From positions 249,404 through 313,403 of the forward strand of contig CAVYSK010000007.1 in assembly GCA_963771155.1 (NCBI GenBank): a stretch of 64,000 nt of DNA, given 5' to 3'. Under the pieces are notes generated by a model. That model saw only the letters and a list, made by a program, of their open reading frames with translations, searched no databases and had not been told where the DNA came from. Positions 9,312 through 53,960 of this stretch are shown piece after piece; the stretch's first letter is position 1; every line of letters begins with the position of its first letter. Made by a program: the position numbers and the translations under genes. The DNA comes from an uncultured Chloroflexia bacterium. GTDB lineage: Bacteria > Chloroflexota > Limnocylindria > QHBO01.

Positions 9312-10115
9312 CTAGGCCGGCGCCGCGAGGTCCCGCCGCGGGAAGACGATGAGGGCGTAGACGATCGGCACCACGAACGCGATCCCGCAGATCACCAGGT
9401 CGATCGGGTCGAGCGCTCCCTCGAGGATCTCCCCGGGCTGGAAGTGGTGGAAGAGCGAGTACTCCTGGGTCCAGTCCGCCTCCCGCCACAGGGATCCGAG
9501 GATCTCGAAGAAGTAGTTCACCAGCAGGTACGCAAGCGTCAGACCGATGGCGGGCCCCGGGCGGTCGAAGCTCACCGAGGCCGCCAGGCCGAACGTCGCG
9601 AAGGCGCCCCAGAGGAGGAAGCCATTCAGCCAGACCAGCGGCAGCTGCTCGAGCCGCAGGTCACCCACGACGTCCTGGACCGCCGCGCCGGTCACGAAGC
9701 CCGCCAGCAGCGCGACCAGGACCACGCCGACTACCAGGAGCAGGGCGAGAAGGATGCTGAGGTACACGGTGACGCGCGACACCGGCCGTGCGAGCATCAC
9801 CTCGAGCGTGCCCCGCTGGCGCTCGCCGGCGATGGCGGTGGCAGTCGCCTCGATCGCGAACACGCCGAGCATGGCGATCGCCAACGGGTGCTGCGTTCCG
9901 AGGGTGATCGCGCCGGGGAGGGTGAACAGGGAGCCCGAGCCGAAGTTCATCAGCTCGGTCGGGAAGGCGCCCGAGGTGGCGATGTCCTCGAAGACCTCGG
10001 CGAACGCCACGTAGATGACCGGGATCAGGACGCCCCAGCCGAAGATCGCGATCGTCACGATCAGCCAGCGCGCGCGCTGCCAGGCGAGCGTTCGGCCGAA
10101 CAGCGGCAGGTTCAT
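9312..10115 (-). CDS. ABC-2 type transporter permease
   Basis: A track ORF of 267 aa with six TM segments. Its start overlaps the stop of the upstream ATPase. Confidence 0.7.
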
Positions 10116-11024
10116 CCTCCGTCTCCGGCGTAGTACTCGAGGAAGGCCTCTTCCAGGCTGGCCGGCTCGATCGTGAGGTCCTCCAGCGACGGCGAGGCGA
10201 CGGCGCGCACGAACTCGGAGACGTCACCCGTCCAGCGTCCCGAACAGGCGGTCGCCATCGACCGACGACGTTCGCGAGGCCGGGGATGCGTGGTCGGATC
10301 GGGCGCCGCGCCCCGCCAGCGGATCGAGACGCGCCGCCGCCGGCGGCTCAGGAGCTCTCGAACGTCATGGATCGCCATCAGCCGGCCCTGGCGGATGATG
10401 GCGACGCGATCGCAGACGCGCTCGACCTCGGACAGGATGTGGCTAGAGAAGAAGATCGTGCGGCCCTCGGCGCGAAGGTCGGTGAGGATGCGCGTAGAAC
10501 GCGTGTTGCATGAGCGGGTCGAGACCCTCGGTCGGCTCGTCGAGGATCGCCAGCTCCGGGTCGTGCTGGAGCGCCTGGATGACCCCGATCTTCTGCCGCA
10601 TCCCACGTGAGTAGTCGCGGACCTTGCGCCGAAGGTCCTCCTCGGGCATCTGCAGCCGCTCGACCAGCTCGGCGCGCCGATGCGGCTCGCGGCCCTGGAG
10701 ATCGGCGAGGTAGTCGAGGACCTGGTGGCCGGTGAGGGAGTCGTACAGCGCGATGCCGCCGGGGAGATAGCCGGTGAGGCGGCGGATCTCCACCGACTCG
10801 TCGGCCACGTCCATGCCCAGCACGGTCGCCCGCCCCGACGTCGCGTGCAGGAAGCCCAGCAGCGTCCGAATCATCGTCGACTTCCCGGCCCCATTCGGGC
10901 CGAGGAAGCCGAAGACCTCGCCCGGGCGGACGTCCAGGTCGAGATCGGTGAGGGCGGCCACCGAGCCGTAGTGCTTCGTCAGTGCGTGGGTGCTGATGAC
11001 CGGATCGCCCGGGGTGCCCTCCAT
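10112..11024 (-). CDS. ABC transporter ATP-binding protein (frameshift near 10490)
   Basis: Walker [10 protein letters not shown] and signature [11 protein letters not shown] are in ORF 10443..11024. The Walker [12 protein letters not shown]-loop [10 protein letters not shown] and the C-terminus are in ORF 10112..10606 in another frame. Confidence 0.75.
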
Positions 11025-44312: not shown

Positions 44313-45134
44313 GTGGATCGCGCCGTTGAGCTGGCGCGAGCCGCGCTGGACGCGGACATCCACGTCGCCGACACCCGCGACCCGACCGAGCTGGCCGACT
44401 TCCTGTCCGAGCGGATCGGCGAGTACGACACGGCGATCGTCGTCGGCGGGGACGGGTCGCTCGGCGTCGGCTACAACGTCATCGCCGGGCTTAGCGACGG
44501 CCCCGCGCTGGGGTACATCCCGGCCGGGTTCGGCAACGCCAGCGCGCACCTCCTGCGCCTGCCGCGCGATCCCGAGGCCCTGGCCGATGTCCTGCGAGCC
44601 GGGGACGCGCGACCAGTCGACCTGGTGCGCGTCGGGGGACGGCTGGCGCTCTTCGTCGGTGCGGGCTGGGACGCGCTGGTGGCCGGACGATATGCGGCGG
44701 CCGGTGCGCGCCGGCTGCCGGGTTGGGCGGTCGCCGTGGCTCGCTCGGTCCCCGACCTGTGGCGACGCCCTGCGGTCGAGGTGCGCGCCGACGACTGGGT
44801 CGTCCATCGGGGCCCGATGGAGATGCTCGTGGCCGGCACGACCCCGTTCTACGGACGCGGTCTGGTAGTGAACCCGGGCGCTCGACCGGACGCCGGCGCG
44901 CTGTCGCTGCGCGTCTACCCCGGGCCGGCCCCCCGGCTCGGGATCGAGGCCGGTCGCTGGGCGCTGGGCATGGCGCCGCACGCGCCCCGCATCGCCGCCC
45001 GCCGCGTCGAGATCCGCACGACCGATGGTACGGAGCTTCCGCTGCAGGCCGACGGCGACCTCATCGGCACCCGGCCCGACTGGACGTTCGAGATCGAGCC
45101 GGCCGCGGTGCGCGTCATCGGTCGTTGGGACTGA
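44313..45134 (+). CDS. diacylglycerol/lipid kinase catalytic-domain protein (DAGK_cat, YegS-like)
   Basis: TAIVVGGDGSLGVGYNV (GGDG motif), GYIPAGFGNASAH. Confidence 0.7.
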   Translation: MDRAVELARAALDADIHVADTRDPTELADFLSERIGEYDTAIVVGGDGSLGVGYNVIAGLSDGPALGYIPAGFGNASAHLLRLPRDPEALADVLRAGDARPVDLVRVGGRLALFVGAGWDALVAGRYAAAGARRLPGWAVAVARSVPDLWRRPAVEVRADDWVVHRGPMEMLVAGTTPFYGRGLVVNPGARPDAGALSLRVYPGPAPRLGIEAGRWALGMAPHAPRIAARRVEIRTTDGTELPLQADGDLIGTRPDWTFEIEPAAVRVIGRWD

Positions 45135-46245
45135 ACCTCCGCACGGCATCGAGCGCCGCGAAGGCGGCGCGCCGCAGGCGCTGCGGTCCGGAGCCATGGA
45201 TCCGCAGCTCGTTCATCGGCATCGAGACGGATCCGCTGAGCGCGACGCGAACGCGGCTGCGGCCATTTGCGTCCTGCGGGAGCAGCGAGAGCTGGATCAC
45301 GACGTCCGCCACGGGGGGTCCGGACGGCGTGCCCGCGTCGAGCACGCCGCCGACGTATCCCGCCGCTCCGTCGGCCGCAGGGGAGGCAGCCAATACCGCG
45401 AGCAGGGCGCCGGCGGTGTCCGCCTCCCAGGTCGCGACCGTCGAGGCGCCCAGCGCGCCAAGCCGGGTCAGTGCCGCGGAGGCCAGATCATCCCCATCGG
45501 TGCCGTAGGCGGCCTCGCCCAGGAGCTCCACCGAGCGGTCGACCAGCGGGTCCAGTGTCGTCGGATCGCCGCGTGTCGAGAAGCGCACGTGGACACCGTC
45601 GTCGCGGGCATAGATGCCGGCCTCGACCGTTGCCGGCGGCTCGGTGAGCAGCGCCCCCAGCCGCTCCGCCATGGCCGACTCGCCGATGCCGAAGGCCTTC
45701 ACCGTGCGGATCGCCAGCGGAGGTAGGGCGAAGCGCGCCTCGAGGCGGGGGCGGACCTGGTCGGCCCACATCCGGCGCATCTCCGACGGAACGCCTGGCA
45801 TGAGCACGACGGCTACGCCGTCCCGATCGACCCACCAGCCGGGTGCCGAGCCGATCGGGTTGGCCAGGATCTCAGCGGACCCGATCCGCATCGCCTGCCG
45901 GCGGTTGGCGACCGGCATCGGTCCGTAGGCGGCAAACCGCTCCTCCAGGACGGCGACCAGCGCAGGGTCCTCCGCCAGCTCCTCGCCGAGCGCATCGGCG
46001 AGGCCCTCGCGCGACAGGTCGTCGTGGGTCGGGCCAAGGCCTCCGGTGGCGAGCACGACTTCGGAACGCTCACGAGCCAGGGCGAAGGCATCGTGGAGCG
46101 CGCCACGGTCATCGGGAAGCATGCGAATGGAGCCAAGCGGCAGGCCGATCTGCGCCATCTCGCCACCCAGGAAGGCCGCGTTGGTGTCGACCGTCTCACC
46201 CAGCAGCAGCTCGGCGCCGATCGAGAGCAGCTCCGCGTTCGCCAT
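45115..46245 (-). CDS. cinA: CinA family protein (MoCF-binding domain plus nicotinamide-nucleotide amidase domain)
   Basis: MANAELLSIGAELLLGETVDTNAAFLG...VVLATGGLGPTHDD. Confidence 0.85.
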   Translation of the reverse strand: MANAELLSIGAELLLGETVDTNAAFLGGEMAQIGLPLGSIRMLPDDRGALHDAFALARERSEVVLATGGLGPTHDDLSREGLADALGEELAEDPALVAVLEERFAAYGPMPVANRRQAMRIGSAEILANPIGSAPGWWVDRDGVAVVLMPGVPSEMRRMWADQVRPRLEARFALPPLAIRTVKAFGIGESAMAERLGALLTEPPATVEAGIYARDDGVHVRFSTRGDPTTLDPLVDRSVELLGEAAYGTDGDDLASAALTRLGALGASTVATWEADTAGALLAVLAASPAADGAAGYVGGVLDAGTPSGPPVADVVIQLSLLPQDANGRSRVRVALSGSVSMPMNELRIHGSGPQRLRRAAFAALDAVRRFSPNDR

Positions 46246-46340
46246 CGGTCAGGAGTCTAGGGCTACACTGGATTTCAGAGCGCCATCCATGCGCCGATGC
46301 CGACGATTGGCATACGTCCTGCCCACTCCGGAGGACATCC

Positions 46341-46757
46341 GTGACCGATCCTGCCCTGACCGTCGAGCCCGTCCTCACCGACGACCTGCGTGACTGGCTG
46401 ATGGCCAAGCTTCGCTACCCCGTGCTGGCCGTCCTGACTCCCGATGGCGCGCCCAACCAGTCGGTGATGTGGTTCGACATCGATCCCGACCACCCGGACA
46501 CGATCCTGATGAACACGAAGGTCGGTCGGGCCAAGGAGCGGTTCCTGCGCCGAGACCCGCGCGTCAGCCTCTGTTTCGAGGAGGAGCTGACCTGGGTCGC
46601 GCTCCAGGGGACCGTCGACCTCGACGAGGATCGCGAGGCGTCGATGCGCGACATCCTCGCCCTGGCCGAGCGCTACCGGTCGACGGCCCGGGAGTTCGGC
46701 GGCCAGCAGCGGGTCACGATCCGCATGAAGGTCGAGAAGGTGATTCGCCACGACTGA
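46341..46757 (+). CDS. PPOX class F420-dependent / pyridoxamine-5'-phosphate-oxidase-like protein
   Basis: A 138-aa split-barrel pattern (YPVLAVLTPDGAPNQSVMWFDIDPD...RVSLCFEE...) with a GTG start. Confidence 0.6.
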   Translation: MTDPALTVEPVLTDDLRDWLMAKLRYPVLAVLTPDGAPNQSVMWFDIDPDHPDTILMNTKVGRAKERFLRRDPRVSLCFEEELTWVALQGTVDLDEDREASMRDILALAERYRSTAREFGGQQRVTIRMKVEKVIRHD

Positions 46758-46773
46758 ACCGGCCGCCTAGGGT

Positions 46774-46790
46774 CGTATATACGGTATATA
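46774..46790. promoter_or_regulatory. AT-rich near-palindromic 17-mer GTATATACGGTATATAC, copy 1, 21 nt upstream of the LLM TTG start
   Basis: Seen directly. An identical copy lies at 51947..51963. Confidence 0.55.
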
Positions 46791-46811
46791 CCGCGAGCTA
46801 GGAGCTGAAGT

Positions 46812-47751
46812 TTGACTGAGCCGATCAAGCTGGGGGCCAACTCCTGGAACCAGTACGCCGACTGGGCGGCGCTTCGGGAAGCCGGCATCCGGCACGACCG
46901 GCTCGGCTTCGACTCGATCTGGACGTGGGACCACCTGTACCCGATCGTCGGCTCCCACGAGGGGCCGATCTTCGAGGGCTGGCTGACGCTGGCGGCCTGG
47001 GCCGAGCGGACGGAGCGCGCGACGATCGGCCTGATGGTCGGGGCCAACACGTTCCGTAATCCGGCGCTCGTGGCGAAGATGGCCACAACCCTCGATCACA
47101 TCAGCGGGGGCCGCGCGGTCCTCGGCATCGGCGGCGCCTGGTTCGAGACCGAGCACCGCGCCTACGGGCTCGAGTTCGGTGGGTCTCCCGGAGAGCGGCT
47201 GCGCTGGCTCGAGGAGGCGGTGCACATCATGCGCGGCATGCTCCACGGAGAGCGGCCGTCGGGCTCGCGCTACTACACCGCCCATCAGATCCGGAACGAC
47301 CCGCCGCCGGTCCAGGAGCGGCTGCCGATCCTCATCGGCGGGGGAGGCGAGCAGAAGACGCTGCGGATCGTGGCCCGCTACGCCGATGCCTGCAACGTCG
47401 GCGGCGGCTTCGAGACCGTAAAGCGCAAGGACGAGATCCTGCGCCGCCACTGCGAGGAGGTCGGCCGCGACGAGTCGGAGATCGAGCGGACGGTCGGCAT
47501 GGGCATGTGCATCATCCGCGACGATCCCGCCGAGGCCGAACGGGTTGCGAACGCGACCTTCGAGCACAACGGCAAGGCCGACCCGTGGAGGAACCAGCTG
47601 GTCGGCACGCCCGAGCAGGTCGCTGGAGGCCATGCGGCCGTTCCTCGGCATCGGGTTCCGGCACTTCATCATCGGCTTCCCGTCGCCGTACGACGAGGAG
47701 TCGGCTGAGCGGCTAATTCGCGAGGTCAAGCCGGAGCTCGAGCGCGGCTGA
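46812..47751 (+). CDS. LLM class F420-dependent oxidoreductase (frameshift near 47620)
   Basis: MTEPIKLGANSW...TIGLMVGANTFRNPALVAKMATTLDHISGGRAVLGIGG. The C-terminus (MRPFLGIGFRHFIIGFPSPYDEESAERLIREV) is in the frame of ORF 47545..47751. Confidence 0.7.
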
Positions 47752-47778
47752 CGGCGCGCCGCACGGTACGCTGCGGCC

Positions 47779-48690
47779 ATGAAGGTCACGCTCCTCGCCG
47801 GCGGCACGGGCGGGACGAAGCTGGCGCACGGCTTCGCGATGCTCGACGAGGTCGAGCTCACCGTGATCGCCAACGTCGGTGACGACGTCGAGATCCACGG
47901 GCACCTCGTCTGCCCCGATGTCGACGCGCTGACCTACACCCTCGCCGGCCTGCTCGACACGGAGCAGGGCTGGGGGATCCGCGGCGACACGCACACCGCC
48001 CACGCGATGTTCGAGCGGCTCGGTGAGCCGGCCTGGTTCCGCATCGGCGACGCCGACCTCGCGACTCACGCGTACCGCGGGCGTCTTCTGCGTGACGGCG
48101 TCAGCCTGACCGATGCGGTCGCCTCGACGACCACGGCGCTCGGCATCGGCCCCCGGATCCTGCCCGCCACGGACGACCGCTGGCGGACCATGCTCGACAC
48201 CGACGAGGGGTCGCTGGAGTTCCAGGACTACTTCGTGCGGCGGCGGCAGGAGCCCGAGGTCCGTGCCGTGCGATTCGACGGCGATGCGCGTCCGTCGTCT
48301 GCGGTGCTCGCAGCGATCGCGGATGCGGATCTGGTCGTCATCGGTCCATCGAACCCGATCGTCAGCATCGGGCCTATCCTGGCGCTGCCCGGGATCAGTG
48401 AGGCTGTCCGCGCTCATCGCTCCACCGTCGCGGTGAGCCCGATCATCGAGGGCCGCGCCCTGAAGGGACCGGCCGACCGGATGCTGACCAGCCTGGGGCA
48501 CGAGTCGTCAGCAGCCGGTGTGGCGCGAATCTACGCCGGCCTCGTCCGGCGTCTCGTGATCGACCAGGCGGATGCGGGGCTGGCCAGCGGGATCGAGGCG
48601 GAGACCGGCCTGGCGGTCGCGGCGCTGCCGACGGTCATGCGGACCGACGACGATCGCCGCACGCTCGCCGAGGCGCTGACCCGAGGCTGA
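47779..48690 (+). CDS. cofD: 2-phospho-L-lactate transferase CofD (F420 biosynthesis)
   Basis: MKVTLLAGGTGGTKLAHG...VVIGPSNPIVSIGPIL. Confidence 0.85.
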   Translation: MKVTLLAGGTGGTKLAHGFAMLDEVELTVIANVGDDVEIHGHLVCPDVDALTYTLAGLLDTEQGWGIRGDTHTAHAMFERLGEPAWFRIGDADLATHAYRGRLLRDGVSLTDAVASTTTALGIGPRILPATDDRWRTMLDTDEGSLEFQDYFVRRRQEPEVRAVRFDGDARPSSAVLAAIADADLVVIGPSNPIVSIGPILALPGISEAVRAHRSTVAVSPIIEGRALKGPADRMLTSLGHESSAAGVARIYAGLVRRLVIDQADAGLASGIEAETGLAVAALPTVMRTDDDRRTLAEALTRG

Positions 48691-49319
48691 TGCCCGCGCT
48701 GCGATATGCTGCCCGGGTGTCGACCCGGATCATCGTTCCGCACCGCGGGCTGGAGGCGGCGAAGACCCGACTCGCCCCCAGCCTCGATCCCGAGGAGCGG
48801 ATCATGCTCGCCAGCCAGCTCCTCCAGCGGGTGCTTGCGGTGGCGCACGAGGTGAGCCACGACGTTGTGGTGATCTCGCCGTCGCGGCCGCTGGCGGAGA
48901 TCGTCGAGGCCTCCGGCGCGCGCCTGGAGGTGCAGCGCGGCATGGGCCTCAACGAGGGTCTCGACCAGGCCCGCTCCCAGGCGCTGCTCGACGGCACCGA
49001 GACGCTCGTGGTGCTGCATGGCGATCTGCCAAACCTGCGTGCTGCCGACGTCGAGACGCTGATGGGTGCGCTCCCCTCGAATGGCGGTCCGGGCGTGGCG
49101 ATCGGCCCCGATCGCGCGGGCACCGGCACGAATGCCCTGGCCCTCCGGCCGCCCGGCGTGATCGGGTTCAGGTTCGGGGTCGGCTCGTTCGCCGCCCACG
49201 CGGCCGAGGTCGAACGGGCCGGCGTGTCCTGCGTGGCAGTGGACCGCGCCGGCCTGGCGTTCGACCTCGACACCCCCGCCGACCTCGCGCGCTGGTTGGA
49301 GCTCGGGGACGCAGCGTGA
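48690..49319 (+). CDS. cofC: 2-phospho-L-lactate (phosphoenolpyruvate) guanylyltransferase CofC/FbiD
   Basis: RIIVPHRGLEAAKTRL...GTGTNAL. ATG overlaps the cofD stop. Confidence 0.75.
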   Translation: MPALRYAARVSTRIIVPHRGLEAAKTRLAPSLDPEERIMLASQLLQRVLAVAHEVSHDVVVISPSRPLAEIVEASGARLEVQRGMGLNEGLDQARSQALLDGTETLVVLHGDLPNLRAADVETLMGALPSNGGPGVAIGPDRAGTGTNALALRPPGVIGFRFGVGSFAAHAAEVERAGVSCVAVDRAGLAFDLDTPADLARWLELGDAA

Positions 49320-50074
49320 GCTCGCGCATCGAGCTCATCGGCCTAGACGGCATCGGCGAGATCCAGCCCGGCGACGATCTGGCCGCCACCGTCGCGGCGG
49401 CGGCAGCCGCCGGCGAGGTCGTCCTGACCGATGCGGACGTCGTGGTCGTCACGCAGAAGGTGGTGTCCAAGGCCGAGGGTCGCCTGGTCGACCTCGCAAC
49501 GGTCGAGCCATCGGCGCTGGCCCGCGACTGGGCGGAGCGCTGGGGGAAGGACGCGCGCCAGGTCGAGCTGGTGCTGCGCGAGTCCGCCGCGATCGTGCGC
49601 ATGGCCACCGGCGGCCTGATCATCAGCCGCACTCGGCACGGCCTGGTGTGCGCGAACGCCGGCGTGGACGTCAGCAACGTCGGCGGTGGCGACGTGGCGT
49701 CATTGCTGCCTGAGGATCCCGATGGGTCGGCCCGCGGCATTCGCGAGGGCCTGAGGGCGCGAACCGCCGTGGCGCCCGCGGTCGTCATCAGCGACTCGTT
49801 CGGGCGGGCATGGCGCAACGGGATCGTGAACGTTGCGATCGGATCCGCAGGCATCGAGGCCCTGGTCGACCTGCGCGGCGAACCCGATGTCTCCGGTCGC
49901 CCGATGCGCGCCACGATCATCGCGGTCGCCGACGAGCTCGCGTCTGCCGCCGATCTCGCGGGCGGCAAGGTTGACCAGCGTCCGGTGGTCGTGGTGCGCG
50001 GGTACGAGTGGCGTCCCTCGCCGCAGGGCGCATCGGTGTTGGTCATGGAGGCCGAGCGGGACCTGTTCCCGTAG
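49316..50074 (+). CDS. cofE: coenzyme F420-0:L-glutamate ligase CofE
   Basis: IELIGLDGIGEIQPGDDLA...VVVTQKVVSKAEGR...GLVCANAGVD. GTG overlaps the cofC stop. Confidence 0.8.
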   Translation: MSSRIELIGLDGIGEIQPGDDLAATVAAAAAAGEVVLTDADVVVVTQKVVSKAEGRLVDLATVEPSALARDWAERWGKDARQVELVLRESAAIVRMATGGLIISRTRHGLVCANAGVDVSNVGGGDVASLLPEDPDGSARGIREGLRARTAVAPAVVISDSFGRAWRNGIVNVAIGSAGIEALVDLRGEPDVSGRPMRATIIAVADELASAADLAGGKVDQRPVVVVRGYEWRPSPQGASVLVMEAERDLFP

Positions 50075-50083
50075 GCAGGCGGC

Positions 50084-51445
50084 TTGCATGGCATGGGAAC
50101 GCCCGCTGAGCGGGCGAGCATGGACGAACAGCGCGTTCTCGACCGATACCGACTGATCGAGCGGATCGCCGCGGGTGGGACCGCGGAGGTCTGGCGTGCC
50201 CACGACGAGCAGCTCGACCGTCCGGTGGCGATCAAGCGGCTCCACGCCCACCTCTTCGCCGATGACTCCTCGCGCGCCCGGCTGGCCGCCGAGGCGCGCG
50301 CCGCGGCCCGGCTCTCGCACCCGGTGATCGTGGGCGTCTATGACGTGGACGCGACCGGCGACGCGCCGGCCCTGGTCATGGAGCTCGTCGACGGCGAGTC
50401 CCTGGCCGCGCGGCTGGAGCGCGATGGGCCGCTGGCCGAGCGCGAGGCGGCGGCCATCGCGGCTGACCTGGCCGAGGCGATCTTCCACGCCCACCAGCAG
50501 GGCGTGATCCACCGCGACATCAAGCCGGGCAACGTCCTGCTCGATCGGGCCGGGCGCACCCGGCTCGTGGACTTCGGGATCGCCCACAGCCTCGCGGACG
50601 CCTCCGAGCGGCTGACAGTCACCGGTACGGTGGTGGGCACCCTACCCGCCATGGCGCCGGAGCAGCTGGCCGACGGCCCGATCACCCCGCGCACCGATCT
50701 CTACGGGCTGGGCGTCGTGCTGCACCAGGCGCTCACCGGCCGTCCGCCGTACCCGACCGGCTCCCCGCTGGCCCTGGCCGCGGCGCAGCGCGCGGGTCCG
50801 CCGCCGCTGGGTGGGATCGATGCCGCACTTGCCGCCGTCGTAGCCGGCTGCCTCGCCCACGACCCGGCCGATCGTCCTCTCCATGCCGGCGCCGTCGCTG
50901 AGGCACTCCGGTCGTGGCTGGCCGGCGACCCCGCGCCGGCGTTGGCGCTGGCCCCGGTCGCCTCGGTCGACACGTCAGCGGTGACCCAGCCGATCCCGGT
51001 GGTCGACATGGGCCCTGCCGCGGTCGCCGCCGCGCCGCCGCCTTCAGTTGCCCGGGACGGCCGGCAGCGCCGGCTCGTCCCGCTGCTTGCCGCCCTGGCT
51101 GCCCTGCTCGTAGTCGCGGTTCTGGCCGCCTTCGCCGCGAGCCGGCCCAATGGCATCGCTGACCCGGCACCGTCCGCATCGGCTCAGACACCACTGCCCA
51201 CGGCAACCGAGACGCCCGTTGCCGAATGGCTCGCGCGCCTGGTCGAACGGGTCGAGAAGGACTGCGGCGCTGATGCCGCCACCGAGGCCGAGGCCGAGAT
51301 GGCGTCGATGACAGAGGACGAGGCTCGCGCCCACGCCGACGCGCTGGTTCAGGAGTGCAAGGACGACGATGGCGGGGGCGGGAACGGTCGTGGCAACGGG
51401 AACGGCGGGGGCAACGGGAACGGGGGCGGAAACGGCGACGACTGA
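50084..51445 (+). CDS. Ser/Thr protein kinase with TM segment and a C-terminal Gly/Asn-rich tail
   Basis: YRLIERIAAGGTAEVWRA..VAIKRL (G-loop and Lys), HRDIKPGN, DFGIA, APE. TM LLAALAALLVVAVLAAFAA. Confidence 0.85.
   Translation: MHGMGTPAERASMDEQRVLDRYRLIERIAAGGTAEVWRAHDEQLDRPVAIKRLHAHLFADDSSRARLAAEARAAARLSHPVIVGVYDVDATGDAPALVMELVDGESLAARLERDGPLAEREAAAIAADLAEAIFHAHQQGVIHRDIKPGNVLLDRAGRTRLVDFGIAHSLADASERLTVTGTVVGTLPAMAPEQLADGPITPRTDLYGLGVVLHQALTGRPPYPTGSPLALAAAQRAGPPPLGGIDAALAAVVAGCLAHDPADRPLHAGAVAEALRSWLAGDPAPALALAPVASVDTSAVTQPIPVVDMGPAAVAAAPPPSVARDGRQRRLVPLLAALAALLVVAVLAAFAASRPNGIADPAPSASAQTPLPTATETPVAEWLARLVERVEKDCGADAATEAEAEMASMTEDEARAHADALVQECKDDDGGGGNGRGNGNGGGNGNGGGNGDD
51365..51440 (+). 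repeat. low-complexity GGGNG/GNG coding repeat at the kinase C-terminus
   Basis: GGGGNGRGNGNGGGNGNGGGNGDD, encoded by reiterated GGCAACGGGAACGG units. Confidence 0.6.
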
Positions 51446-51478
51446 GCTCCCCAGCCCGCGCCGGTTACGTCGGGCGAC

Positions 51479-51565
51479 TCACAGTCGCTGCTGGCGGTAC
51501 CCCCACCAGAGAAGGGCCGCCATCAGGATGCCGAAGACGATCACGGCTCCGACGATGACTTCCAT
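51479..51565 (-). CDS. putative 28-aa single-TM micropeptide
   Basis: MEVIVGAVIVFGILMAALLWWGYRQQRL*, immediately downstream of and co-directional with the SnoaL-like gene. It is below the track length cut-off. Confidence 0.2.
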   Translation of the reverse strand: MEVIVGAVIVFGILMAALLWWGYRQQRL

Positions 51566-51573
51566 GTCCGGCC

Positions 51574-51909
51574 TCAGTTCGGCGTCAGGAAGAGGCTGAC
51601 GATCTCGCCGTTCTCGACCCGGAAGTTCGCCTCGACGTGCATCGGGTCGATGCCGGGGCGCATCACCGTGACGTCGGCCACGTACGATGCGCCCATGTTG
51701 CGGCTGTCGTTGATGAACAATCTGAACCCATCGCCGGCCCGCATGAACCAGCCCCCGACCTTGTCGCGTCCGCGCAGGTTCGTCCGCTCGTCGCTGCCTG
51801 GAACGCTGATGCCCATCACGGCGTTCTCCGCCAGCAGCTCCACGGCCTTGTCGCGGTGATCGTCGTTGATGAGCTCGAAGAAGAGATCGACGGTCTCGGT
51901 GGCTCCCAT
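51574..51909 (-). CDS. SnoaL-like / NTF2-like small protein
   Basis: 111 aa, MGATETVDLFFELINDDHRDKAVELLAENAVM... (a nuclear transport factor 2 / ketosteroid isomerase-like fold pattern). Confidence 0.55.
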   Translation of the reverse strand: MGATETVDLFFELINDDHRDKAVELLAENAVMGISVPGSDERTNLRGRDKVGGWFMRAGDGFRLFINDSRNMGASYVADVTVMRPGIDPMHVEANFRVENGEIVSLFLTPN

Positions 51910-51946
51910 ATGCCGCCAGTTTACCGAATCGCCGCTGTGCGCCGCC

Positions 51947-51963
51947 GTATATACGGTATATAC
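51947..51963. promoter_or_regulatory. AT-rich near-palindromic 17-mer GTATATACGGTATATAC, copy 2, in the divergent intergenic region between the SnoaL-like gene and hom
   Basis: Seen directly and identical to 46774..46790. It lies 38 nt from the SnoaL-like start and 40 nt from the hom ATG. Confidence 0.55.
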
Positions 51964-52002
51964 ATGCGGTTCCGGCCATGCCGAGCCCCGTAGACTGAGC
52001 CG

Positions 52003-52932
52003 ATGGACCGCCTGCGCATCGGCCTGATCGGATGGGGGACCGTCGGCTCGGCCTTTGGAACGCTCGTCGCCGACGGGCCACTGCCACTGACGCTCGCCGG
52101 CGTGGCCGTCCGCGACCCGGATCGGGCACGCGAGCGCGGCCTCCCCAAGGAGGTGCCGACCATCTCCGTCGACGAGGCCCTGGCGGTCGACGTCGTGGTC
52201 GAGCTCGCGGGCGGCCTCGAGGGCCCCCGAGACTGGGCCCGCGCGACGCTCGACCGCGGGACGCCGTACGTGACGGCGAACAAGGCGCTGCTTGCCACCC
52301 ACGGCGGCGAGCTCGCGGAGCTGGCCGAGCGACGGGTCGCGGCACTGCTCGGCAGCGCGAGCGTCGGCGGCGGCACGCCGATGATCGAGACAACGCAGCA
52401 CGTCGCGGCCGCCGGCGAGATCGCACGGCTGCGGGGGGTGGTGAACGCCACCACCACGTTCATCCTGAGCGCGATGGGACGCGGAGCCAGCTACGAGGAT
52501 GCGCTGCGCGACGCGCAGGATGCCGGCTACGCGGAGGCTGATCCGAGCTTCGACGTCGAGGGCCGCGATGCCGCGCAGAAGCTCGCGATCCTCGCCTCGG
52601 TGGCATGGGGGACATGGCGGCCAGAGTCCGACGTGGACACCACCGGGATCCTCGATGCGGCGGTCGCCCCGGGCCAGATCACCCGGCTCGTGGCGGACGC
52701 GGATGCCACCGCGCTGCGCGTCGCGCCGGCCACGCTCGACGCACTCGACCCGCTGGCCGCGCTCGACGGGGTCGAGAGCATGCTCGAAATCGTCTCGCGC
52801 GACGGGACCACCGTCCGCGTCAGCGGCCCCGGCGCAGGTGGCCGGGTGACGGCCGGCGCGGTGTACGCGGACGTCGCGCGTCTGGTCGCCGGCGAGCGGC
52901 CGATCCTGTTCGGCGGTATCGTCGCCCCATGA
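52003..52932 (+). CDS. hom: homoserine dehydrogenase (short form without ACT domain)
   Basis: MDRLRIGLIGWGTVGSAF...TANKALLA...EADPSFDVEGRDAAQKLAILA. Confidence 0.75.
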   Translation: MDRLRIGLIGWGTVGSAFGTLVADGPLPLTLAGVAVRDPDRARERGLPKEVPTISVDEALAVDVVVELAGGLEGPRDWARATLDRGTPYVTANKALLATHGGELAELAERRVAALLGSASVGGGTPMIETTQHVAAAGEIARLRGVVNATTTFILSAMGRGASYEDALRDAQDAGYAEADPSFDVEGRDAAQKLAILASVAWGTWRPESDVDTTGILDAAVAPGQITRLVADADATALRVAPATLDALDPLAALDGVESMLEIVSRDGTTVRVSGPGAGGRVTAGAVYADVARLVAGERPILFGGIVAP

Positions 52933-53960
52933 ACGGATGGCCGACGGTCGGGGTGGCGGGTGCGCGGGGCGTGGTCGGTGGGGTGTTCTGCGACATCCTC
53001 GCCGATGCCGGCCTGCCCGCCGAATGCCTCCGCGCCTTCGGCCATGAGGAAGGCAACACGCTCGGCTACCGCGGTGAGACGGTCCCGGTGCACGTCCTCA
53101 CCGACGAGCGGGCGGGCGAGCTGGACGTGCTGTTCCTGGCGGTGGACGCTGCCCAGAGCCGCGAGATCATGGACGGACCGGGTCGCGCGGTGCCACTCGT
53201 CGTCGACAACTCGAGCGCGTTCCGCCTGGCCGACGACGTCCCGCTCGTCGTTCCGGAGGGGAACGCGCATGCTGCCCGCGATCGCACTGGCAATCTGATC
53301 GCCAACCCGAACTGCACGACGGCCGCAGCCGTCGTCGTGCTCGCGCCGATCCGCGACCTCGCTGGCCTCGACTCGGTCGACCTCGCCAGCTACCAGGCGG
53401 TCAGCGGCGCCGGCCGGAAGGGCCTGGACGCCTGGGAGGCGGAGCGAGCGACCGACCATCGCGACGCCGCCGCCGGATCGCCGTTCCACGGCCGGATCGC
53501 CGACTCGGTGGTCCCGCAGATCGACGTCCTCGCCGATGACGGGTGGACCGGCGAGGAGCGAAAGATCCACGCCGAGCTGCGCAAGATCCTCGAGCTGCCG
53601 GAGCTCGACGTCGCCGCCTCGGCCATCCGCGTGCCAGTCCGCACCGGCCACTCCGTCGCGCTTCACGTGCGCACGACGCGGGACACGACCGTCGAGGAGC
53701 TCGAGGCTGCGCTGAAGGCCGCGCCCGGGCTCGAGTACCGCCCCGCCGATGGATCCGAGCGCCACCCGATGCCGCTCGACGTCGAGGGCCGTGATCCGGT
53801 GCTGGTCGGGCGGCTCCGCGCTGTGGCCGGCCGGGAGCGGGGCTTCGCGCTGTGGCTCAGCAGCGACAATCTTCGCAAGGGAGCCGCGCTCAACGCCATC
53901 CAGTGCGCGGCGGTCGCCGACCCGGAGCGCTACGGACGGCTCCTACCGCCCCCTCGGTGA
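52929..53960 (+). CDS. asd: aspartate-semialdehyde dehydrogenase
   Basis: VGVAGARGVVGG...NPNCTTAAAVVVLAPI (catalytic Cys)...SGAGRKG. ATG overlaps the hom stop (ATGA). Confidence 0.85.
   Translation: MNGWPTVGVAGARGVVGGVFCDILADAGLPAECLRAFGHEEGNTLGYRGETVPVHVLTDERAGELDVLFLAVDAAQSREIMDGPGRAVPLVVDNSSAFRLADDVPLVVPEGNAHAARDRTGNLIANPNCTTAAAVVVLAPIRDLAGLDSVDLASYQAVSGAGRKGLDAWEAERATDHRDAAAGSPFHGRIADSVVPQIDVLADDGWTGEERKIHAELRKILELPELDVAASAIRVPVRTGHSVALHVRTTRDTTVEELEAALKAAPGLEYRPADGSERHPMPLDVEGRDPVLVGRLRAVAGRERGFALWLSSDNLRKGAALNAIQCAAVADPERYGRLLPPPR

Follow-up and report, generated by a model that had tools for sequence, protein, structure and literature searches.

The question raised by this locus is why one short AT-rich palindrome, the 17-mer GTATATACGGTATATAC, should occur twice in DNA of ~70% GC. 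The DNA is a stretch of 64,000 nucleotides, called the window below, from contig CAVYSK010000007.1 of an uncultured bacterium of the Limnocylindria lineage of Chloroflexota. Between the two copies lie a luciferase-like gene of the F420-dependent type (the LLM gene), cofD-cofC-cofE and a Ser/Thr protein kinase gene. A preliminary description of the window had regarded the pair either as a shared operator for a dimeric regulator or as att-like sites around a mobile island. On balance, we lean to the view that the 17-mer serves as operator of a repressor that binds as a dimer of dimers, that it overlaps a promoter with a −10 element only, and that the window copies are members of a family dispersed throughout the Limnocylindria.

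Both copies are exact, and from composition ~4e-8 copies of GTATATACGGTATATAC are expected per 64 kb by chance; 100 dinucleotide-preserving shuffles of the window contained no match. The earlier statement that an AT-rich 17-mer is present twice beyond chance is therefore borne out, and the interval given with it, 46774-51963, is correct at its end and off by one at its start, which lies at 46775. Each 17-mer is made of two self-complementary GTATATAC octamers, 9 bp apart, and one joining base, as had been proposed and as is read directly in both copies. The octamer occurs four times in the window, every time within the two 17-mers. No further copy was found in the window at up to three mismatches, and a scan of the window with the relaxed 8-1-8 pattern GTNNNTACSGTANNNAC gave no site besides these two. 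According to an alignment of the copies and a repeat search of the window, the sequence common to both ends at 18-21 nt; a longer repeat or an insertion-sequence (IS) end behind the 17-mer, a possibility that the preliminary description had itself raised, is therefore rejected.

Both copies lie between genes. Copy 1 is 17 nt past the stop codon of a PNPOx-like gene; another 20 nt, which include an AGGAG ribosome-binding site, separate it from the LLM gene and its TTG start. Copy 2 occupies part of the 93 nt between a SnoaL-like gene and hom, which are divergent and start 37 and 39 nt away from it, respectively. The bases that flank the copies are C/C and C/A.

To place the two copies in a wider frame, species-representative genomes were scanned with the pattern GTATATACNGTATATAC, which has N at the centre, and metagenomes with a G or C centre; the site consensus is written as MGTATATACSGTATATACK. 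As high-GC we count contigs of 64-75% GC, of which many bear the name Limnocylindria or Chloroflexota. Among the matches listed, at least 46 copies are in high-GC Chloroflexota-type contigs, several of them per metagenome-assembled genome (MAG), while the low-GC matches are partly what AT-rich genomes yield by chance. In the N-centred genome scan, the centre is G or C in all 21 high-GC copies among the matches listed. The high-GC copies listed are also all intergenic. One MAG, SMAG_U1275, holds both L044, with one site, and L106, with two copies (loci retrieved from the scans carry the prefix L). Unselected secondary sites in the fetched loci, one exact and three with one mismatch, correspond to roughly one site per 40-70 kb; on this basis, each genome of Candidatus Limnocylindria and of related high-GC Chloroflexota is estimated to hold tens of nearly identical copies between its genes. 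A phage origin was considered and rejected, since all 22 viral-contig matches have 32-59% GC, well under the ~70% of the window.

Some of the genes beside the sites recur from contig to contig. Shared neighbours are miaA (four contigs), accC|fabZ (three), murA (two), an acyl-CoA thioesterase gene (three) and an aldehyde dehydrogenase/LLM pair (two), and others include trpS/birA, cysS/Nudix, rplK, tig, a metF-like gene, meaB and the 3' ends of relA and sucD. A regulon specific to F420 or to amino acid biosynthesis, as had been envisaged for the window, is not supported by this result, because the genes beside the at least 46 sites form a diverse housekeeping set.

Orthologous sites were compared at miaA (four contigs), accC|fabZ (three), murA (two), the thioesterase gene (three) and the L128/L158 pair. 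The motif is 94-100% identical, whereas the surrounding 140 nt are 24-59% identical. Since the motif is kept while its flanks diverge, the comparison indicates that the 17-mer sequence itself is under purifying selection. The centre base switches between G and C at orthologous sites independently of gene direction, so that the site behaves as a symmetric one. Information beyond the 17-mer is limited to positions ±1 to ±3, where C or A follows G-rich bases on the left and the right side mirrors this, giving a weak 23-bp palindrome of two types, GGA...TCC and GnC...GnC. We also noted three variants with one mismatch (L149:625, L183:1340 and L220:1478), all of which alter position 7 or the mirror position 11, the A/T beside the central CSG; this suggests that position 7/11 may be the least constrained.

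What kind of protein might read such a site is indicated by other bacteria. When the genes beside all matches were clustered, four kinds of small autoregulated repressor were found directly 3' of the 17-mer. The YtrA-like GntR proteins of ~124 aa account for at least 25-27 loci, mostly in Firmicutes, with the 17-mer 3-70 nt upstream; the centre of these sites is usually A or T, and they often overlap a TTGACA-N17-TATACT promoter. At least 23 loci are AbrB-type VapB/PIN modules, in which 0-30 nt separate the full 17-mer from the vapB gene that it precedes. AbrB-like Phd/Doc modules are found in L036, L066 and L176, of which L066 and L176 are high-GC and L066 is named Chloroflexota; in these two, an exact G/C-centred 17-mer precedes the Phd gene by 21-50 nt and Doc follows. 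Related Chloroflexi Phd-like loci have the 8-1-8 variants GTCATTACGGTAATGAC and GTGTATACGGTAACTAC, with the same TACGGTA centre. In one of them, the high-GC locus L256, the Phd-like AbrB gene (10001-10264) is inserted between hom-lysC and asd, with its operator variant GTGTATACGGTAACTAC at 9960-9976, and hence sits in the same pathway as window copy 2. The fourth kind, a ribbon-helix-helix (RHH) antitoxin with a PIN toxin, is that of Limnocylindria-type contigs and is described below.

Binding of AbrB-type dimers to the same octamer has been published. In VapBC1 of C. crescentus the half-site CGTATATACG overlaps the −10 element and is bound by the VapB1 AbrB dimer, and in the VapB4C4 complex two AbrB dimers occupy adjacent major grooves on two neighbouring half-sites (PMC5389673). 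The AbrB-like Phd dimer of E. faecalis binds the 10-bp palindrome TGTATATACA near a TATA box (PMC13034048). The octamer of this VapBC1 half-site is that of the 17-mer, and its C/G flanks are shared by many Limnocylindria copies. The second half-site in Caulobacter, however, is degenerate, and the operator there is one autoregulated site beside its own genes, whereas the Limnocylindria copies are dispersed beside housekeeping genes and the window has no vapBC. The preferred flanks differ as well: the VapB loci mostly have T/A, the Limnocylindria copies C or A to the left and G or T to the right. The Phd-Doc palindrome, likewise bound near a TATA box, corresponds to an octamer that the window copies hold twice; one octamer is enough for binding there, however, and the window has no Phd-like gene. 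The YtrA-GntR loci share the identical 17-mer, often overlapping a promoter, but their repressor has a winged helix fold and their sites are single autoregulatory ones beside ABC-transporter operons. The 17-mer family can thus be classed as a form of a known type of operator that is dispersed and tied to housekeeping genes, because it shares the sequence of antitoxin operators and yet does not stand ahead of its own repressor genes. The remaining literature on the octamer consisted mostly of primer sequences, and Rv0023 of M. tuberculosis, which came up as a match, has a different site, TATAcgtTTTT.

A comparable architecture is known from RHH repressors such as CopG, Arc and MetJ and the antitoxins MazE6 and FitA. 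They bind as dimers of dimers to palindromic subsites repeated at 8-11 bp, each subsite being read by the beta-ribbon of one dimer, and the operator overlaps the promoter of an autoregulated repressor; the MetJ box is AGACGTCT. The short repeated palindromic subsites are the common feature, while the subsite sequences are unrelated to the 17-mer. To our knowledge, RHH operators are known from one or a few loci and never from tens.

In the 17-mer each arm is itself palindromic, which is needed neither by an inverted repeat for one dimer nor by an RNA stem and therefore argues for one symmetric dimer per octamer. The preliminary description was accordingly right about an operator-type cis-element and less so about a single dimer, since the architecture points to two. 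The operator reading is supported by a sequence that is far beyond chance, not contained in a longer repeat, dispersed, conserved relative to its flanks and symmetric, as well as from the identical 17-mer upstream of autoregulated repressors and the published dimer binding to GTATATAC. A small DNA-binding protein of the ribbon or hairpin type would place one dimer on each octamer, so that a dimer of dimers would fill the site. The bound protein would cover the −10/start region, at the central TAC(G/C)GT or at a TATACT edge, or block read-through. In the window, this would affect LLM-cofDCE-kinase at copy 1 and, at copy 2, the two divergent units, SnoaL-like and hom-asd. By analogy with the systems above, we infer that a protein binds at the window copies; its binding would presumably repress transcription, and its identity, considered below, is equally presumptive. 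The octamer can be iterated at the 9-bp phase: tandem arrays of at least three 9-mer units of GTATATAC+N occur in L210, L218, L175, L123, L129, L017 and L086, which are lower-GC metagenome contigs, one Burkholderiales MAG and one locus beside a GntR gene.

The relation of the site to −10 elements, which had also been supposed earlier, is upheld in that the sites are at or beside the −10/start region and carry TAnnnT hexamers on both strands. The centre of the motif reads TACGGT on the top and TACCGT on the bottom strand in both window copies, and a T as flanking base creates a further hexamer, TATACT, at the edge. Sites with this T flank lie 7-9 nt from the start codon in 4/4 cases, compared with 3/32 otherwise (p = 6e-4). 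Their TATACT is 6-7 nt ahead of the start codons of miaA (in two contigs), of a DUF1015 gene and of the RHH gene, as would be expected if the transcripts were leaderless. The other sites are mostly 18-50 nt from the start codon, a distance that includes a ribosome-binding site, as at copy 1. The T flank is not a general outward promoter, however, as it is not enriched on sides that face gene starts (7/36 versus 11/31 on sides that face gene ends). Nor are −35 elements or canonical promoters or terminators part of the site: no −35 signal was found across the 46 sites, and a consensus promoter and terminator scan of 46500-52300 found nothing.

As the protein that binds the sites in the Limnocylindria, we put forward the RHH antitoxin, with or without its PIN toxin, as the leading candidate, although only tentatively. 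The RHH antitoxin and PIN toxin are conserved in four Limnocylindria-type contigs, L106, L149, L183 and L205. The antitoxin matches Pfam RHH_1 and a HicB-like RHH region, and its nearest solved relatives, by weak matches, are the RHH proteins MazE6 and CopG. The contig of L205 ends before the upstream region of the RHH gene; in the three contigs that cover it, the motif lies 6-9 nt ahead of the start codon, exact in L106 and with one mismatch each in L149 and L183, and its T flank leads to TATACT at leaderless or near-leaderless spacing. A second, exact copy follows the PIN open reading frame (ORF) before the next gene, at 1-2 nt in L106 and L183 and at ~10-13 nt in L149 and L205. RHH is the sole family of DNA-binding proteins that recurs beside the motif in Limnocylindria-type contigs among the matches listed, and the pair of L106 shares the MAG SMAG_U1275 with the housekeeping trpS/birA site of L044. 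If the candidate is right, it would bind the dispersed sites alone or complexed with the PIN toxin. The pair is bracketed by motif copies ~616-625 bp apart (L106:2668-3300, L183:715-1356 and L149:5-641) and occurs in at least two contexts, before a response-regulator/oxidoreductase gene in L106 and before a thioesterase gene in L183 and L205.

Other candidates were less satisfactory. A GntR profile built from 25 YtrA-like proteins that adjoin the 17-mer found no YtrA-like GntR in Limnocylindria-type loci. The XRE-family protein beside the L110 site has no homologue at other sites, and its likely start is ~128 nt off. The VapB of L185 has its closest named relatives in Thermoanaerobaculia, none of them labelled Limnocylindria. 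An orphan Phd-like protein is a weak lead only, as no 17-mer or octamer lies within 10 kb of its gene and its own upstream region differs. This orphan AbrB-like Phd gene, intact and encoding 71-83 aa in several high-GC Chloroflexi, stands between a TPR gene and ndh in L242-L247 and L254-L255 (for example L245:10001-10216), with tyrS upstream in L242 and L245-L247; its Doc partner is a truncated remnant of 73-75 aa without the catalytic motif, or weaker traces, and the gene looks like a domesticated orphan antitoxin.

Whether the two window copies delimit an island can be judged from three relatives, L239-L241. These share the order DAGK-CinA-PNPOx-LLM-cofD-cofC-cofE-(kinase)-SnoaL-like-hom-asd, and the 111-aa SnoaL-like orthologue is at the same position in L240 and L241. 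The motif itself varies. In L241 it is present solely at the SnoaL-like/hom site, with centre C where the window has G; L240 has two degenerate copies at that site, one of which lacks a base (an indel); L239 has no motif, and its SnoaL-like/hom spacer is ~50 nt shorter than that of the window. Copy 1 is carried on a window segment of ~41 nt that is lacking in L241; there, the ribosome-binding site of LLM directly adjoins the PNPOx stop. Comparison with L241 revealed no target-site duplication at this insertion. Copy 1 is probably a newly gained internal promoter/operator ahead of LLM-cofDCE. The bracketed segment is neither absent nor relocated in L239-L241, gene order and neighbourhood being unchanged, and no integrase or recombinase was found between or beside the window copies, where all Pfam assignments are metabolic or kinase. 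Because the genes are syntenic whatever the motif status and no recombinase is present, the copies do not bound a mobile island. The suggestion of att-like sites is not supported: the window copies mark neither island boundaries nor an F420 regulon. Small-scale variation was also seen nearby. Of the three relatives, L241 has the kinase gene that follows cofE, L239 has a fragment of it and L240 lacks it; other variable insertions are an aldehyde dehydrogenase gene (L239), an EmrE-like gene (L240) and a DUF2269 gene (L241).

Several observations weigh against an operator and have to be set beside the evidence for it. A specific repressor would usually act on one pathway, and the adjoining genes share none. 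The motif is gained and lost among close relatives, and single copies may thus be dispensable. Most copies are perfect, 17/17, and few are degenerate; the sites of a large regulon would typically vary more, but searches for exact matches favour such an outcome. Gene starts are not preferred, with 36 sides facing starts and 31 facing ends, and in short spacers between co-directional genes many copies are 1-19 nt past a stop codon. Convergent genes surround at least 4-5 sites (L095 at DUF427/UbiA, L128/L158, L166 and L019), a setting verified by Pfam for L095, L128 and L166 and conserved over two contigs for L128/L158; a simple promoter-operator model fails at these sites, which might be explained by a roadblock, an insulator or unannotated transcripts. 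The window copies, given their C/C and C/A flanks, lack the TATACT edge hexamer. Finally, profile searches of the window for RHH, AbrB/VapB, Phd-like and YtrA-GntR proteins found none, those for VapB and Phd in all six frames. A regulator encoded locally is therefore rejected, with the YtrA-GntR, VapB(AbrB), Phd-like(AbrB) and RHH/PIN profiles all empty, and the window copies do not directly precede an antitoxin-toxin operon, their neighbours being LLM, SnoaL-like and hom.

Much of the same evidence could be read as that of an intrinsic bidirectional promoter with a −10 element only, portable between genes and without a dedicated regulator, an explanation that we regard as rather improbable. 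The centre TAC-S-GTA reads TAnnnT on both strands, and the AT-rich arms would ease melting in a genome of 70% GC. A central TAnnnTA is found in every copy, and in the loci L176, L140 and L254, which are of toxin-antitoxin (TA) type, TTGACA or TTGACT stands 16-17 nt upstream of the central TACSGT as a consensus −35. Distances of 7-50 nt to start codons leave room for a ribosome-binding site, divergent pairs have ~30-40 nt on each side (window copy 2, L241, L020, L023 and L044), copy 1 is an insertion between otherwise abutting genes, and the T flank accompanies leaderless spacing. A −10 element, however, needs ~3 fixed bases, whereas 16 are conserved here in addition to the strict G/C centre (21/21 listed). 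The three one-mismatch variants lose the central TAnnnT on both strands, and two of them are those that precede the RHH gene; copies between convergent genes are conserved. The even distribution over starts and ends, the missing −35 signal and the empty promoter scan are equally difficult to reconcile with a promoter as such. The promoter explanation is nevertheless compatible with an operator, as the site in the known systems is operator and −10 element in one.

We find it distinctly unlikely that the 17-mer is a dispersed repeat of selfish or structural nature or a target of recombination, whether similar to repetitive extragenic palindromes (REP) or miniature inverted-repeat transposable elements (MITE), a cassette boundary or att-like, with copies that would bracket units such as the 5.2-kb F420/kinase segment or the RHH/PIN cassette. 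Presence and absence among close relatives resembles insertion and deletion, the copies are orientation-neutral, strictly intergenic, mostly perfect and often just past stops, and the RHH/PIN pair is bracketed by copies in L106, L149 and L183. REP elements and bacterial interspersed mosaic elements (BIME) are imperfect GC-rich hairpins of 20-40 nt with a conserved GTAG end, present in hundreds of often clustered copies and linked to REP-associated tyrosine transposases (RAYT). They resemble the 17-mer as short dispersed intergenic palindromes, frequently past stop codons and polymorphic in presence among relatives, but their length, GC-richness, GTAG end, clustering and RAYT link are not seen for it. 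The unit of 17-23 bp has no conserved flanks, target-site duplication or terminal structure, neither the window nor the annotated loci have a transposase, RAYT or integrase associated with it, and a genome is estimated to hold tens rather than hundreds of copies. Synteny in the interval between the window copies is kept in L239-L241 with or without the motif, and orthologous copies persist within flanks of 24-59% identity, which points to selection rather than recent spread. An action as RNA, as an intercistronic or untranslated-region (UTR) hairpin, a processing or stability signal or a protein-binding stem-loop, appears very improbable. A hairpin of 6-8 bp is possible on either strand and would suit orientation-free placement between cistrons and at 3' ends; its stem, however, needs no self-complementary arms. 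Folding energies are like those of shuffled sequences (z-scores +0.37, −0.99 and −0.52), Rfam gave no match apart from a single sub-threshold chance match located elsewhere, and there is no U-tract or terminator. An extended hairpin with compensatory flanks is rejected, since complementarity of the flanks reaches 1-3 nt at most and no compensatory changes were seen. In divergent spacers of ~90 nt, moreover, the promoters of such transcripts would be buried in the neighbouring coding sequence. The operator thus remains the reading that we prefer.

The gene content around the copies (Table 1) is as the preliminary description had it, Pfam agreeing with the assignment of LLM, cofD-cofC-cofE, kinase, SnoaL-like and hom-asd genes. 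The LLM gene has homologues of 82-91% identity, several of them named Candidatus Limnocylindria, which places the window in this high-GC class of Chloroflexota, and is itself frameshifted near 47611-47625. For the CofD protein of the window, a look-up found no identical entry. Residues 1-271 (46812-47624) are in a single frame at 90% identity to homologues, while the C-terminal 41 aa of the homologue are encoded in a different frame at 47611-47745; either an assembly error or a pseudogene would account for this. The ORF listed at 45843-46757 (304 aa) is over-extended at its 5' end, as the PNPOx homologues in L239-L241 have 137-138 aa, and its 5' part overlaps a minus-strand ORF, 45115-46245, where syntenic loci have a CinA-type gene. 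The listed asd ORF, 52605-53960, overlaps hom. A second common sequence, the 12-mer GACTGAGCCGAT, lies 3' of both 17-mers at 46814-46825 and 51993-52004, overlapping the LLM and hom start codons; the spacers between 17-mer and 12-mer, 22 and 29 nt, are unrelated in sequence. The hom-side 12-mer is kept as TAGACTGGCCCGATGG in L240 and L241 and has one substitution in L239. It may reflect chance or a shared translation-start context.

Table 1. Positions in the window of the two palindrome copies and of the genes around them
Feature	Position	Strand	Basis
PNPOx-like gene, 3' part	46407-46757	+	Pfam PNPOx_N, residues 189-301 of ORF
Copy 1, GTATATAC-G-GTATATAC	46775-46791	.	exact match
LLM gene (luciferase-like, F420-dependent type)	46812-47748	+	Pfam Bac_luciferase, E = 2e-46
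cofD	47779-48690	+	Pfam CofD
cofC	48690-49319	+	Pfam CofC
cofE	49316-50074	+	Pfam F420_ligase
Ser/Thr protein kinase gene	50084-51445	+	Pfam Pkinase, E = 2e-44
SnoaL-like gene, 111 aa, divergent from hom	51574-51909	-	weak Pfam SnoaL_2, E = 8e-4
Copy 2, same palindrome as copy 1	51947-51963	.	exact match
hom	52003-52932	+	Pfam Homoserine_dh, NAD_binding_3
asd, after hom	ends 53960, start not fixed	+	Pfam Semialdhyde_dh, Semialdhyde_dhC

Limnocylindria are abundant in soil and freshwater and are uncultured, and we know of no regulatory element described from them. The present analysis defines a conserved cis-element of high information content that can be scanned for in MAGs and tested with few candidate proteins. 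A further step, which we consider doubtful and offer as speculation, is that the RHH antitoxin, or a domesticated one that has lost its toxin by decay, has acquired a class-wide regulon, with tens of perfect copies of its own operator at core growth genes. Its targets would include murA, fabZ, miaA, tRNA synthetase genes, hom-asd and F420 biosynthesis, with operators at −10/start regions or between cistrons. Were the binding protein an antitoxin, the spread of a TA operator to housekeeping promoters would be seen here with unusual clarity, which would matter for the long debate over a regulatory role of chromosomal TA systems in host physiology. If the class-wide regulon were also real, the toxin-antitoxin state would directly gate housekeeping transcription in these bacteria, as a switch between growth and dormancy.

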